IMG/VR virus record: IMGVR_UViG_3300045988_013492
Span: 1-5,821 of that record
From: a virus
Length of the DNA stretch: 5,821 nucleotides
Reading direction: 5' to 3' (one strand)
This document shows, piece after piece, positions 1,620-5,821 of the stretch. The position numbers and the translations under genes were made by a program. Position 1 is the first letter of the stretch. Each line of letters starts with the position of its first letter. The notes beneath the pieces were generated by a model. The model was not told the DNA's origin and ran no database searches. It saw only the letters and a list, made by a program, of their open reading frames with translations.

Positions 1620-3353
1620 TTATAGTTTTTCCAGACCCGGCACGCTATACAGCGGCATACAGCGTGTTGTTTTGTTCATTACTCGGATTGCGCCGAAAAA
1701 CTGTGGTTCATTCTGTACGATGAGTGTCCGTGCGATTTCGTTTTTACCTTCTTTCATCCAATCTTGACTGAGTGTCGGCACGGTTTCATAGTTGTCTGCA
1801 TAGTGCCAGAAGTCGAGCGTTCCTGGTACGTTACTGCGCATTTTGCCGCTTACACGGTTTGGCTTCATTCTATAGTCTGCCCAAGCTTCCTGATATCCGA
1901 ATGTTTCATCATCTGTGCTTGTACCTGTACACATGATTTCGCGTTTTTTGACAGGCTGTTCGCCCAGATTTGCAAACTGTGGAAAGTAGTAGTCCAGTCG
2001 GTCTGTTCGGCTCCAGAATCTTTCAAGGCCTTGCTGATAGCTGCGGTCGTGACGTACACACATGACACCGATAATAAACCCGTGTTCTTCAAAACTCTTT
2101 GTGAAGCTGCTCTCGTTGATAGGTGTGATCGACATTGCACCCGTTTCTCCGATAGGCGTTCCATTGTCTGCTTCTTGACCGCTTGTCTGTACGATCTGGT
2201 TCATGTTGACGTGGTAGCGTCCACCACCCAAATATTCCGGAATCTGAACAGTTTTGTCACTGATGCTTACGCCAAACAGTGCTCGCACCTGTTCGCGGTA
2301 GCGGCTACCGCCACGTGCCAGCGCTTCGTAGTAGTGTTGTACTGCGAAGGCCTGGCGTAACTGGTTGATTGTTGCTGCTTCGATGTTGCTCATGTCTGTT
2401 CCCAACCATGCGTCAAAGAAGTTTGCATCGTCTTGGCTCATTGTTTGGATTCGCTGTCCGTCTACTACCGGCGCTGTGTTTCCGTTGTTGTTTTTGTTTA
2501 CGCTGAATTTCGTTCCTTGGTTTGTGAATGAGATGTTTGTGTGATTTACTATTCCGGTGTTATATTCGTTGTTGAAAAATCCTGTTCCAATTTTTCTGTT
2601 GCTTAGATTGCTTTCGCTGTAGGCTCTTAACGGTGCATTTCCGGTGAGTGCAATTGTCACTTCCGGTCCTCGCTGAGGATACGGCAGACAGGACGAGAAA
2701 TAATCATGGAATCGGTTTACTGGTAAGCATCGTCCTCCGTGTACAGCATATAGGAGGATTTGTTCTGTTTCTTCGTTGACTATGTCCTTGTAATCGATGT
2801 CTTCATCGCCTGTTTTCATTACTGCCGGGTTTCCTACGTTTTGATCTCGGAAAAATTCGTTCCAGATTTTTACATATGCTCTTATCGGCAGCGCGTTTAT
2901 CTCGACCCTTCTATTTTGATGGTTTGCGAACATTCTTGTTGGTACTCCCATATAGTCTAGGATTGAGGCTTCATATGGTACGATTGTTACTTCATCTGCT
3001 TGGGTTTTGATAATGAGTTTGGGCACTTTATAGGTTTTTGTAGGCTTCCACGGCACTTCATCTGCTTCGCCCATGAAGTGTTTGAAGTTGTCCCACAGGA
3101 TACGGTTTGGACAGAAGAAATAGTAAAAGTCGATGTATGCATCGTCCATTACAGGATATTTTGGCGTTGTCATTCGGATGATTGCTGCCGTGTCTACGCT
3201 GAATGTATCACCCGGTAGAACCTCATCAACGTAAAATGGAATCAGTTTGCCTGCATCGAAGGTTGTGAGAATGTTCTGATCTCGTTTGAAACGTGTTCGG
3301 CTTACGTGTGTTTCTGGTACTTGGTTGAAGTGCCGTTCATTATTCCGATTCAT
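1620..3353 (-). CDS. Major capsid protein VP1 (577 aa), Microviridae F-protein family.
   Basis: Track ORF. The N-terminus is FNQV...TTFDAGKLIPFYVDEVLPGDTF, the canonical gokushovirus VP1 start. Conserved blocks INQLRQAFAVQHYYEALARGGSRYREQVRALFGV and C-terminal YSVPGL are present. AAGGAG (3366..3361) sits 7 nt upstream of ATG 3353. An Asn-rich insertion at residues ~236-316 corresponds to the gokushovirus surface 'mushroom' loop. Confidence 0.95.
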   Translation of the reverse strand: MNRNNERHFNQVPETHVSRTRFKRDQNILTTFDAGKLIPFYVDEVLPGDTFSVDTAAIIRMTTPKYPVMDDAYIDFYYFFCPNRILWDNFKHFMGEADEVPWKPTKTYKVPKLIIKTQADEVTIVPYEASILDYMGVPTRMFANHQNRRVEINALPIRAYVKIWNEFFRDQNVGNPAVMKTGDEDIDYKDIVNEETEQILLYAVHGGRCLPVNRFHDYFSSCLPYPQRGPEVTIALTGNAPLRAYSESNLSNRKIGTGFFNNEYNTGIVNHTNISFTNQGTKFSVNKNNNGNTAPVVDGQRIQTMSQDDANFFDAWLGTDMSNIEAATINQLRQAFAVQHYYEALARGGSRYREQVRALFGVSISDKTVQIPEYLGGGRYHVNMNQIVQTSGQEADNGTPIGETGAMSITPINESSFTKSFEEHGFIIGVMCVRHDRSYQQGLERFWSRTDRLDYYFPQFANLGEQPVKKREIMCTGTSTDDETFGYQEAWADYRMKPNRVSGKMRSNVPGTLDFWHYADNYETVPTLSQDWMKEGKNEIARTLIVQNEPQFFGAIRVMNKTTRCMPLYSVPGLEKL

Positions 3354-3976: not shown

Positions 3977-4074
3977 TTTCTTTTCTCCTTTACAGTCTGA
4001 TGCCGCCCCTCATGGGTTTCTGGCTGAGGTTGATACTCTTCGTTTTTCGTGCCGTTGTGTTGAACATTCGCTTG

Positions 4075-4320
4075 TCAGTGCGTACCGGCATGCGCTGTCT
4101 GTGCTTCATCTGTGTACTCCCTTCTGAGTAGCTCTAGCTCGATGTCGTTGGCCCATTTCTTCATAACCCAGATTCGGTCAATGGTTTTTTTGGCATCTTC
4201 CAGCTTGGATACTTTTTTTATCATCTTGTATCCGGCTTCTATTTGCTTGTATAGCCTTTCGGTTTCTTGCCTGAGCGTTTCTTCGGTCTGGTCTCTCACA
4301 TTCCATGTTTTGTGTAGCAT
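4075..4320 (-). CDS. Hypothetical small protein (81 aa), predicted helical and Lys/Glu-rich.
   Basis: Track ORF with ATG at 4320. AAGGAG (4331..4326) lies 6 nt upstream and overlaps the stop of the upstream 34-aa ORF. The sequence MLHKTWNVRDQTEETLRQETERLYKQIEAGYKMIKK... matches no family I recognise. Confidence 0.6.
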   Translation of the reverse strand: MLHKTWNVRDQTEETLRQETERLYKQIEAGYKMIKKVSKLEDAKKTIDRIWVMKKWANDIELELLRREYTDEAQTAHAGTH

Positions 4321-4323
4321 GGT

Positions 4324-4428
4324 TTACTCCTTTTCCTTCAGGATGTGGTAAATTTCGTCCAGCTTCTCGAGGACATTTTTAATTAGCTGGATTGCTTCCC
4401 GCAGGTCTTTCACCTTAATCAATGCCAT
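4324..4428 (-). CDS. Possible micro-ORF (34 aa): MALIKVKDLREAIQLIKNVLEKLDEIYHILKEKE.
   Basis: Not in the track because it is too short. The ATG at 4428 lies 3 nt after the peptidase TAA (TAACCAATG). GGGGG sits ~8 nt upstream. Its TAA is embedded in the next gene's Shine-Dalgarno. It fills the only otherwise unassigned coding-strand gap in a tightly packed genome. It has an amphipathic helix pattern. Confidence 0.3.
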   Translation of the reverse strand: MALIKVKDLREAIQLIKNVLEKLDEIYHILKEKE

Positions 4429-4431
4429 TGG

Positions 4432-4815
4432 TTATACCCCCTTTCTGTATCGTTCTTCACGCACATCAATGTGTACAAAGTTTGTGTATTTGATTACGCC
4501 GCCTTGTTCCATGATGCTATCTGCGTATTTTGCAACTTCTTGACTTGAGTGTCCTTTTACTACAATGTCTGCTGCCATTCCTTTGCAGTGCATTGAGTTT
4601 GGTGCTCCGTTTACTTTGCTGTTCCAGCTCGGTGTTCTGTATCCGCTGTTAATTTTTACCGGTGCTTTGAAGTGTTCTCTTATTGTTTCTAGGATTGTTA
4701 ATAGCTCTTTGCAGATTAGCAGTTTTTTGTTTCCGTCTTTGCATTGAAACTCTTTTGCTTTGAAGTGTTGGCTTAGTTTCCCGTAGTCTGCATTGATGTA
4801 TACGATATTTTTCAT
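4432..4815 (-). CDS. Peptidase M15 (Peptidase_M15_3-type zinc D,D- or L,D-peptidase), a putative endolysin of 127 aa starting at ATG 4815. The track's 156-aa model starting at 4902 is probably over-extended.
   Basis: SGYRTPSWNSKVNGAPNSMHCKGMAADI (SxHxxGxAxD, the zinc ligand motif) and the C-terminal FVHIDVRE are the PF08291 signatures. AAGGAG (4826..4821) lies 5 nt upstream of ATG 4815. A sigma70-like promoter sits inside the supposed N-terminal extension. Confidence 0.85.
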   Translation of the reverse strand: MKNIVYINADYGKLSQHFKAKEFQCKDGNKKLLICKELLTILETIREHFKAPVKINSGYRTPSWNSKVNGAPNSMHCKGMAADIVVKGHSSQEVAKYADSIMEQGGVIKYTNFVHIDVREERYRKGV

Positions 4816-4860
4816 GGCTGTCTCCTTTCTTTTGTATTGTGCTCTTTGTGCTTTGTCTAT

Positions 4861-4889
4861 ATTATAGGTTTTGTCAAGCCTTTTTTCAA
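4861..4889 (-). promoter_or_regulatory. Sigma70-type promoter for the peptidase / small-ORF transcript. -35 TTGAAA (4889..4884), 17-nt spacer, -10 TATAAT (4866..4861).
   Basis: I read the '-' strand directly: ATTGAAA AAAGGCTTGACAAAACC TATAAT. The -10 is a perfect consensus, the -35 matches 5 of 6, and the spacer is the optimal 17 nt. The predicted transcription start near 4854 gives a ~38-nt leader containing the AAGGAG. Confidence 0.5.
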
Positions 4890-4980
4890 TATTTGTAATC
4901 ATTTTGTAATATTATCTATGCAAACTGTCAAGGTTGCCGTAGGCAATTTTGACATTTTGCGTAGATGCCCGCGGCAGGCG

Positions 4981-5145
4981 TTTTCAACATTTTCCACATA
5001 GTTTTCAACATTTCAACATTGTTAAACTTTAACACAACAGAGTGTTTCAACATTTCAACAAGTTTTCAACAAATCTTTCAACATTCTTTTTGGTGCTTTT
5101 TCTTCGTACCAACGTAAAGAAAAAGCACTTTTCAACTTTTCCACA
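4981..5145 (+). repeat. Array of ten head-to-tail 9-mer repeats TTTTC(A/C)ACA. Two are exact DnaA-box consensus TTTTCCACA (4990-4998 and 5137-5145). Eight are TTTTCAACA or TTTCAACA variants (4981, 5002, 5011, 5045, 5053, 5063, 5076, 5129). They are arranged as doublets around a perfect dyad, TGTTAAA-C-TTTAACA (5020-5034).
   Basis: Seen in sequence. Copy spacing of 8-12 bp is roughly helical phasing. The region is non-coding on both strands. Confidence 0.8.
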
Positions 5146-5150
5146 TACTC

Positions 5151-5165
5151 TACTACTACTACTAC
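5151..5165. repeat. (TAC)5 trinucleotide microsatellite.
   Basis: tactactactactac, seen directly, in a non-coding region. Confidence 0.9.
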
Positions 5166-5249
5166 AACAAGTTATATAATAAAGGCGAAGTGTTATCCCT
5201 TGAAGCGAAGCGAATAGGGATTATAGGGTAGAACGTACTCTCCATTTTA

Positions 5250-5290
5250 CCGTGCGCGTGTACGTGCGTTTCGCGCGTGCGCGTGCGCGG
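5250..5290. repeat. GC-rich alternating pyrimidine/purine tract, (CG/TG)n, with three copies of GTGCGCG. It can form a 19-bp hairpin (5250-5268 with 5272-5290, TTT loop) made of 14 Watson-Crick pairs plus 5 G.T wobbles. It is a candidate Z-DNA former or origin / single-strand initiation hairpin.
   Basis: I mapped the pairs base by base. Every non-Watson-Crick position is a T opposite a G. Both arms are perfect Py-Pu alternations of 18 nt. The tract sits in an otherwise AT-rich genome. Confidence 0.6.
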
Positions 5291-5309: not shown

Positions 5310-5356
5310 TCTTAAATCAATAAAAGCCCAGTGCCTTACTTGATAGGTACTGGGCT
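5310..5356 (-). terminator. Rho-independent terminator downstream of Rep. The stem is AGCCCAGT / ACTGGGCT (5356..5349 with 5332..5325) with a 16-nt loop. On the coding strand it is followed by TTTATTGATTT.
   Basis: A perfect 8-bp inverted repeat, seen directly. A T-rich run follows immediately on the '-' strand, 13 nt after the Rep stop at 5369. Confidence 0.5.
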
Positions 5357-5368
5357 AGGTGACACTGA

Positions 5369-5821
5369 TTACAAAATACCACGTTTTTTCGTTTGTTTTT
5401 TGGTTACACGCTCTTTGGTCTCTAAGATGGTTTTATAGTCTTGACCCTCTAACTGTAATCTTTTTTGCCCCATTGCGTTTTTCTGTCGGTTTCGCTTGAT
5501 TCTCCATAGTCTTTCCGGGTTTTCTGCTTCCATCTGTTTTTCATAGTACCTTGGAATTTGTGCTTGTTTCCCGTTGGTACACTGAATGTAGCCTTGCTTC
5601 CAGATTTCTGCCTTGTGCTCTTGATAGTAGTGATCTCCGAGACCTGGTTTTAAACTCATGCATGCAAAAGGTTTTGTTTGCCCTAGTTCATAGTATTGAT
5701 TTGCTTTCTTGCCGTCTATTTCGTACATTTTTTTTGTTACATACCCTGCAACATATCTATATGTTTCTGGAACTGCTTGCGCAATCTGTATTTGACCCAT
5801 TCCCCACAGGTTTGCTAGCCA
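5369..5821 (-). CDS. Replication initiation protein VP4, 3' portion (C-terminal 119 aa, plus 31 codons duplicated from positions 3-95). The stop is at 5371..5369.
   Basis: Track ORF 5369..5800. It extends upstream in frame to the window end and is continuous with complement(1..662) once the 5726-nt circularity is applied. The 5726 offset preserves the reading frame. The C-terminus is basic (KRNRQKNAMGQKR...KKQTKKRGIL). Confidence 0.9.
   Translation of the reverse strand, partial: WLANLWGMGQIQIAQAVPETYRYVAGYVTKKMYEIDGKKANQYYELGQTKPFACMSLKPGLGDHYYQEHKAEIWKQGYIQCTNGKQAQIPRYYEKQMEAENPERLWRIKRNRQKNAMGQKRLQLEGQDYKTILETKERVTKKQTKKRGIL

Follow-up and report, generated by a model that had tools for sequence, protein, structure and literature searches.

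The window analysed here, a 5,821-nt stretch of viral DNA, contains the circular genome of a gut gokushovirus, with 5726 nt of genome followed by a 95-nt assembly overlap. Window bases 1–95 are identical to bases 5727–5821 and the frame of the replication gene VP4 is unbroken across this overlap, indicating that the genome is circular and 5726 nt long. The credible genes are all encoded on the minus strand, hereafter the coding strand, which is poor in T (18.6% T). VP1 was matched to Phage_F (Pfam, E 4e-134), the VP3 scaffold protein to Chlamy_scaf and VP5 to Phage_ORF5, and VP4 shared 89% and 80% identity with VP4 of KX513868 over two aligned parts spanning the circular junction. With VP1, VP2, VP3, VP4 and VP5 on a circular genome of the ~4.5–6 kb type, the virus belongs to the Gokushovirinae (Microviridae), and in GenBank it comes closest to gokushoviruses from the human and pig gut, with ~76–82% nucleotide identity over parts of the genome. 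An Rfam search of the window gave no match above noise, and neither its ORF list nor the Pfam search contained lysogeny genes. The features of the locus are collected in Table 1.

Table 1. Genes and predicted regulatory features of the gokushovirus genome (window coordinates).
Feature	Coordinates	Strand	Remarks
VP4	ends 5369; begins 662 (across the circular junction)	-	
Terminator-like hairpin and U-run	5318..5356	-	just past the VP4 stop; -21.2 kcal/mol, z -2.5; stem followed by UUUUAUU
Non-coding region			553 nt between VP4 and M15; sole large one in the genome
Second, weaker promoter-like site TTGACA-17-TACAAA	4903..4931	-	10/12; predicted start ~4896
Non-coding leader and promoter (predicted)	4816..4902	-	read by longest-ORF callers as a 29-codon N-terminal extension
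-35 TTGAAA	4884..4889	-	in 9/10 alignable sub-clade sequences; TTGAGA in L039
-10 TATAAT	4861..4866	-	17-nt spacer; in 9/10 alignable sub-clade sequences; TACAAT in L040
Shine-Dalgarno AAGGAG	4822..4827	-	6 nt before ATG 4815
M15_3 zinc peptidase (putative endolysin) CDS	4432..4815	-	127 aa + stop; PF08291, PHROG 894
orf34	4324..4428	-	34-aa heptad-repeat peptide
orf81	4320–4075	-	
Basic 39-aa ORF (orf39)	4109–3990	-	
VP5	3976–3734	-	VP3 next, before VP1
VP1	3353–1620	-	
VP2	1543–659	-	

The first gene downstream of the large non-coding region was supplied as a longest-ORF form of 156 aa (4902..4432, minus strand). Both this form (E 4e-24) and the 127-aa form starting at ATG 4815 (E 3e-24, 85.7 bits against a curated cut-off of 23.2) matched PF08291, Peptidase_M15_3, with profile positions 2–108 of 108 covered; the domain begins at residue 46 of the 156-aa form. 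A weaker additional match was found to PF05951, PHROG 894 ("endolysin") was matched with E 1e-38, and tblastn returned annotated endolysins of Vibrio, Proteus and Escherichia podoviruses and of Faecalibacterium phage Aster. The protein carries the motifs SMHCKGMAAD and FVHID, which fit the pattern SxHxxGxAxD ... H, and 23 homologues all retain H76, D83, H115 and D117 (127-aa numbering). Of these, H76 and D83 correspond in the alignment to H154 and D161, zinc ligands of 1LBU, which is the M15A holotype and the sole solved structure that a sequence search could detect (E 1e-4 to 4e-4). A sequence-only reading of this DNA had proposed a bona fide M15_3 zinc peptidase, which was confirmed by PF08291, PHROG 894 and the conserved zinc motif; PF13539, proposed alongside, had no match in the Pfam search. 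The gene product is thereby assigned to the single-domain M15_3 (LAS-type, clan MD) zinc peptidases. The AlphaFold model was calculated from a 23-sequence alignment that was too shallow, every row being at least 76% identical; it reached a mean pLDDT of only 66, with residues 58–80 and 105–114 below 50 and a disordered active-site loop, and Foldseek against the PDB with this poor model returned noise only and no meaningful match.

The nearest matches from cellular genomes (45–55% identity) belong to Lachnospiraceae, Ruminococcaceae and Oscillospiraceae of the Clostridia, the best being the N-terminal domain of a secreted 1334-aa surface protein with a signal peptide. The strong Shine-Dalgarno sites of the genome and its Clostridia-like peptidase point weakly to Firmicutes hosts. 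A match to "Bacteroides sp. CAG:545" (L045) was discarded as host evidence, as it comes from a 5.7-kb contig of a microvirus that had been placed in a MAG bin. The Clostridia-like affinity of microvirus M15 proteins had already been described by Roux et al. 2012 (PMC3394797), with which the present result agrees; that study found M15_3 peptidases in 5 gut Gokushovirinae and 6 Alpavirinae, proposed their horizontal acquisition and a role as endolysin, and speculated on Firmicutes hosts. M15 peptidases were reported in marine Occultatumvirinae in later work. The M15 peptidase of gut gokushoviruses is therefore a feature known since 2012, and the sequence-only reading had rightly called it known; its attribution to Gokushovirinae holds, that to Pichovirinae found no support, and its description of the enzyme as a minority solution is doubtful for animal-gut gokushoviruses, considering that the gene is present in dozens of microvirus records in GenBank.

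A partner for lysis was sought throughout the genome. None of the 29 coding-strand ORFs of at least 25 aa reaches a Kyte-Doolittle hydropathy of 1.6 over 19 residues, the level taken for a transmembrane segment, and the M15 protein itself attains a maximum of 0.55 over 19 residues and has no hydrophobic N-terminus. The earlier statement that this peptidase has neither a signal peptide nor a holin partner is thus upheld. Neither a holin, a spanin, a signal peptide nor an SAR domain was found in the window, and the transmembrane candidates seen in relatives are not conserved; the arrangement differs from a canonical holin-endolysin cassette in that no transmembrane gene is adjacent and the enzyme bears no signal or SAR sequence. 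Several candidates were rejected. A 99-aa ORF inside VP1 (2164..1865, hydropathy 1.42), considered as a holin or amurin, is interrupted by 1–6 stops in every relative covering it. An ORF of ~50 aa over the 3' end of VP4 ("CHLAQYLSSKVLGIIILIA") is truncated in the window and its closest relatives and has no Shine-Dalgarno site; its conservation can be ascribed to that of the terminator hairpin. Hydrophobic ORFs are frequent on the plus strand (28/53), which is attributable to its being the T-rich complement of the A-rich coding strand, and these were likewise rejected as lysis candidates.

The small ORFs downstream of the peptidase, which the sequence-only reading had proposed to search for a holin or spanin helix, fared no better, as orf34 and orf81 contain no transmembrane segment. 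For orf34, the lack of a membrane segment and its occurrence in genomes without M15 mark it, by comparison among relatives, as a gene of the clade rather than an M15-specific partner. Its product has a clean heptad repeat and is 88–100% identical in the closer relatives (L005–L015, L037–L044), where the peptidase is only 76–83% identical, and 47–59% identical in L001–L004. It occurs in 29 GenBank microvirus records and is unannotated in nearly all of them.

Under the most likely mode of action, the 127-aa protein would act as a cytoplasmic zinc peptidase that cuts the peptide part of the host peptidoglycan and so releases the progeny, M15_3 (LAS-type) being the family that many tailed phages use as endolysin. 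How a soluble endolysin would operate without a holin is a puzzle recognised since 2012, which sequence analysis alone does not advance, and no account of M15 export in these phages, nor of their promoters, was found in the literature. The puzzle would vanish if the enzyme destroyed peptidoglycan precursors in the cytoplasm, for instance by cutting back the D-Ala-D-Ala terminus of UDP-MurNAc-pentapeptide or lipid II, so that wall cross-linking is starved and growing cells lyse. Such an enzymatic counterpart of the phiX174, Qbeta and M "amurins" would need no holin, in line with the lack of a signal peptide, an SAR domain, a holin or a conserved transmembrane ORF in the genome and its relatives, and the sole solved sequence relative, 1LBU, is a muramoyl-pentapeptide D-Ala-D-Ala carboxypeptidase. 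The related M15 enzymes VanX and VanY act on peptidoglycan precursors, and other small phages with ssDNA or ssRNA genomes bring about lysis by cutting off the supply of precursors, both of which count in its favour. If true, it would explain why a single soluble protein suffices for a 5.7-kb phage to lyse a host with a cell wall. We nevertheless regard it as unlikely, since the closest homologue of cellular origin is a domain of an extracellular surface protein that bears a signal peptide, and since tailed phages, whose endolysins give the best family match, have holins, the M15 genes of (pro)phages of this kind lying in lysis cassettes with a holin (PMC3394797).

Where this peptidase begins was decided by comparison with relatives. 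Five agreeing lines of evidence, namely upstream stops, absent codon periodicity, pN/pS, the Shine-Dalgarno site and homologue lengths, place the predicted real start at ATG 4815, giving a protein of 127 aa and leaving the 29 upstream codons untranslated; the earlier judgement that the 156-aa model is over-extended is thereby sustained. An in-frame stop lies at most 30 nt upstream of the conserved Met in 7/15 relatives from GenBank and IMG/VR (L001, L003, L006, L007, L010, L013 and L014), in which the homologous Met or Val is thus the only possible start and a longer form is impossible. A length of 127 aa is the modal one among the best 120 database homologues, most of which have it, and the GenBank annotations of relatives give 126–130 aa. 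The exact 127-aa sequence of the window is recorded in ENA beside a 156-aa call, and the identical protein is already present in JGI, ENA and Logan assemblies.

Another possibility is that both forms are made, with read-through or upstream transcripts yielding a 156-aa isoform (176 aa in relatives) whose charged N-terminal extension is regulatory or targeting, and with the 127-aa form arising from an internal promoter. The upstream frame is indeed open in the window and in several of its closest relatives (P0002–P0008, 156–179 aa), remaining so for 29–49 codons in L005 and L037–L040, and L005 and L038 have GTG instead of ATG at the conserved start. The DNA of the window's own sub-clade, gathered because its members tend to keep this frame open, nevertheless speaks against translation of the extension. 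Over 75 nt of it (-87 to -13), the variable sites among 9 sequences were distributed 11/11/11 over codon positions 1/2/3, versus 46/34/74 in the peptidase core, and pN/pS between the window and L005 was 1.07 for the extension versus 0.36 for the core. In-frame stops or a frameshift interrupt the extension in 3/9 sub-clade members (L006, L041 and L043), and the ATG at -87, corresponding to ATG 4902, is missing in 5/9. In the window, a TAA lies four codons upstream of ATG 4902, through which the 176-aa forms read, and no Shine-Dalgarno-like site precedes ATG 4902. With the coding strand so poor in T, few stop codons occur, and chance alone should give long ORFs. Moreover, the residues that seem conserved in the extension (IEK.LDK.YNID) fall exactly on the promoter hexamers described below and are simply these hexamers in translation. 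As the terminator-like hairpin after VP4 would also limit read-through, the production of two forms appears very unlikely. The 127-aa form would instead be translated from ATG 4815 behind AAGGAG, the 29 codons upstream corresponding to a promoter and a leader (4854–4816) that is essentially unstructured, with a fold of -0.4 kcal/mol.

The promoter TTGAAA-17-TATAAT (4889..4861) and the AAGGAG site were found where the sequence-only reading had located them, and the promoter is kept in relatives; its predicted transcription start lies at ~4854. It matches the sigma70 consensus, a standard that presupposes a host with promoters of this type, at 11/12 positions and ranked first in the window scan. 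A coding-strand match of at least 11/12 arose in 4.6% of dinucleotide shuffles of the whole genome and in 0.6% of those of the 553-nt intergenic region, and the number of promoter-like sites in the window (7 found, 8.4 expected) is not above chance, so that the site taken singly is only modestly beyond chance. What makes it convincing is its conservation in relatives and not its single-site score. In 13/16 genomes, a site of at least 10/12 is found no more than 150 nt upstream of M15 and is usually the best or second-best on the coding strand. When the 200 nt upstream of M15 were aligned for the 16 genomes, little was conserved except TTGACA/TTGAAA, a 16–18-nt spacer, TAnAAT and the Shine-Dalgarno site, the flanks being unalignable; within the sub-clade, both hexamers are kept and the neighbouring bases vary. 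These observations argue for a conserved sigma70-type promoter that is presumably active.

The segment from TTGACA to the -10 is 12 nt shorter in the sub-clade than in several relatives, so that a gap of only 5 nt separates the ancestral-looking TTGACA from the -10 and the upstream TTGAAA, now at 17 nt, can serve as the -35. The inner TTGACA (4877–4872) was accordingly rejected as a -35, being too close to the -10 and variable in the sub-clade. The only other coding-strand match of at least 10/12, the weaker site at 4931..4903, falls in the same 553-nt intergenic region; its predicted start is also downstream of ATG 4902, and its -35 forms the 3' arm of a hairpin at 4960–4920. When viral contigs were scanned for exact matches to the promoter core, just two microviruses, both already known, and chance matches in large phages came up.

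The sequence-only reading had assigned this promoter to the peptidase alone, a view that the organisation of the genes contradicts. The stop of M15 (4432) is 3 nt from the start of orf34 (4428), by reason of which orf34 is probably co-transcribed and translationally coupled with M15, and the genes beyond are tightly packed, with GGAG-type Shine-Dalgarno sites before orf81, orf39, VP5 and VP1 and a G-rich GGGGG before orf34. On the coding strand, terminator-like hairpins occur nowhere except after VP1 and after VP4. The former, between VP1 and VP2 at 1570–1552, has a folding energy of -17 kcal/mol; the latter corresponds to inverted repeat I4, is conserved in sequence in relatives, and likely marks the end of a genome-length transcription unit starting at the 4889 promoter. 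In several relatives the -35 hexamer is located in the loop of a terminator-like hairpin, so that transcript end and start overlap. In addition, the complete, M15-less genome MG945157 carries TTGACT-17-TAGAAT in the corresponding position, with two unrelated small ORFs lying between it and orf34. This promoter before other ORFs, together with the tight packing and the hairpin positions, suggests that the promoter heads the whole gene string and that M15 fills its first, variable slot.

These results suggest a simple course of transcription. Most likely, the 4889 promoter would give one long transcript covering M15, orf34, orf81, the basic 39-aa protein, VP5, VP3 and VP1, followed, past an attenuating hairpin after VP1, by VP2 and VP4, and ending at the hairpin with its U-run after VP4. 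M15 would be a horizontally acquired gene in the first "cargo" position of this string. The variability of that position and the absence of M15 from related genomes with all other genes could also suit a virion-associated entry enzyme that digests the wall at infection, or a non-lytic accessory (moron) benefiting a lysogen, with another, unrecognised gene responsible for lysis, but this is scarcely credible, as no place for a 14-kDa enzyme is known in the T=1 microvirus capsid, the window has no lysogeny genes and the tailed-phage homologues are annotated as endolysins. The one further point in its favour is that gokushovirus lysis genes in general are not established (PMC3394797, PMC11499846). 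The explanation that we hold to be probable overall is a 127-aa M15_3 lysis peptidase behind a conserved promoter that heads the whole gene string.

What is added here to the known peptidase is, first, a well-supported correction of its gene model and, second, evidence for reading the "extension" as a conserved promoter heading an operon before a variable cargo slot. By longest-ORF calling, the main predicted promoter of these phages is turned into 29–49 false N-terminal residues, and long and short versions of the same protein both sit in public databases. The promoter and the variable first-gene slot together would provide a simple transcription map for abundant uncultured gut gokushoviruses, and the slot may mark where they take up foreign genes.

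The closest known systems are the M15_3 proteins of gut Gokushovirinae and Alpavirinae (PMC3394797; KX513868 "peptidase M15", MG945334 "similar to peptidase"), which belong to the same Pfam family and are single-domain proteins of 126–130 aa. In genomes of the KX513868/MG945334 type, the gene occupies the same slot between VP4 and the VP5/VP3/VP1 block and likewise has no adjacent holin. The M15 protein of the window is 41–73% identical to the GenBank microvirus copies, and the promoter of its sub-clade lacks the 12 nt found in several M15-bearing microvirus relatives, the upstream TTGAAA being used as the predicted -35. More distant are the M15 endolysins of tailed phages (PHROG 894), comprising those of Vectrevirus/K1-5-like coliphages, Proteus phages PM85 and PM93, Vibrio podoviruses and Faecalibacterium phage Aster, which share the catalytic domain with 39–50% identity over ~110 residues. 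M15 genes of (pro)phages of this kind are typically found in lysis cassettes with a holin, whereas the window genome encodes no transmembrane protein on its coding strand. With 1LBU, the D-Ala-D-Ala carboxypeptidase of Streptomyces albus G, the SxHxxGxAxD motif aligns residue for residue, but only ~40 residues align and 1LBU is a secreted two-domain protein of 213 aa, whose specificity is not transferable. Finally, as a putative lysis determinant of a small ssDNA phage without a holin, M15 resembles phiX174 protein E and the "amurins". Protein E, whose gene lies within another one, sits in the membrane and inhibits MraY, in contrast to the M15 of the window, which is predicted to be a stand-alone soluble enzyme with no transmembrane segment, in a genome where no conserved embedded hydrophobic ORF was found.

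Repeated and folded elements lie upstream of the peptidase gene, and the features located in this genome are collected in the table. TGTKGAAA, expected 0.62 times in the whole window, occurs in nine clustered copies on the coding strand of the non-coding region between the end of VP4 and the peptidase gene. The cluster lies within a non-coding block of about 200 nt that retains about 80% identity across gokushovirus records of otherwise little nucleotide similarity, where its counterparts are without annotation, and the block could represent iterons of Rep (VP4) or an origin, or binding sites for a regulator. The same non-coding region contains the imperfect GC-rich repeat D5 and the perfect 12-bp inverted repeat I3, with the arms GTGCTTTTTCTT and AAGAAAAAGCAC. 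The GC palindrome GCCTGCCGCGGGCA is common to many relatives, even those whose upstream regions otherwise differ, and is followed by a stable hairpin; the hairpins of this stretch (4920-4978) could provide a complementary-strand origin in a packaged ssDNA strand.

Features located in the genome, with their positions and basis
Feature	Position	Strand	Basis or remark
TGTKGAAA cluster	4982-5145, inside the block 4981-5183	minus	motif count
Imperfect GC-rich repeat D5 (GCGCACGCGCACGCGCG...) and I3	5250-5290 and 5093-5128	minus	non-coding region
GC palindrome GCCTGCCGCGGGCA	4978-4965	minus	conserved
Stable 41-nt hairpin	4960-4920	minus	fold, -17 kcal/mol, z -4.7; after the palindrome
GC-rich hairpin between VP1 and VP2	1552-1570	minus	-17 kcal/mol, z -3.7
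Hairpin with U-run, 3' of VP4	5318-5356	minus	fold
orf34 (MALIKVKDLREAIQLIKNVLEKLDEIYHILKEKE)	4324-4428	minus	heptad-repeat peptide
Very basic 39-aa ORF, conserved	3990-4109	minus	PHROG 10695 match, E 1e-10

Upstream of the peptidase gene in four M15-carrying microvirus relatives (L002, L007, L009 and L011), the -35 box TTGACA is placed inside the loop of a GC-rich hairpin, which is followed by a T-run in L007, L009 and L011 (e.g., CCGGAG-TTGACAA-CTCCGG-TTTTTTT), and a terminator-like element thus overlaps the promoter. Two further hairpins in the present genome likely act on the long transcript, the one between VP1 and VP2 as an attenuator and the one 3' of VP4 as a terminator; the former stands immediately before the VP2 start, which is without a Shine-Dalgarno sequence.

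The M15-less relative MG945157.1 holds two other small ORFs between the promoter and orf34 (at about 1440-1830), one of which is Cys-rich (CDRQCDKCPNKDISYYCSY), and this occupancy suggests that the slot is a hotspot for cargo genes. The gene bordering the slot, orf34, is more conserved than either the peptidase or orf81, is likewise carried by M15-less genomes, and is contained in 29 GenBank microvirus records, nearly always with its annotation missing.

The two ends of the window, positions 1-95 and 5727-5821, repeat each other exactly and in direct orientation over 95 nt; this is the assembly overlap of a circular genome with a true length of 5726 nt. The apparent split of VP4 into ORFs of 222 and 143 aa is due solely to this duplication.

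Among cellular sequences, the homologue closest to the peptidase lies in a Lachnospiraceae protein of 1334 aa (5800-9804 of the clostridial locus L046), whose N-terminal domain is 55% identical to it. This protein carries a signal peptide at its N-terminus, its C-terminal regions are long and repeated, and a paralogous protein of 1112 aa adjoins it. To the eye, the C-terminal repeats look like lectin- and dockerin-type modules. On the viral side, the basic 39-aa ORF, which overlaps the 3' end of orf81, keeps 85-95% identity in most relatives and 47-82% in the most distant ones, and it probably encodes the VP8/J-like small protein of gokushoviruses that binds DNA and functions in packaging.
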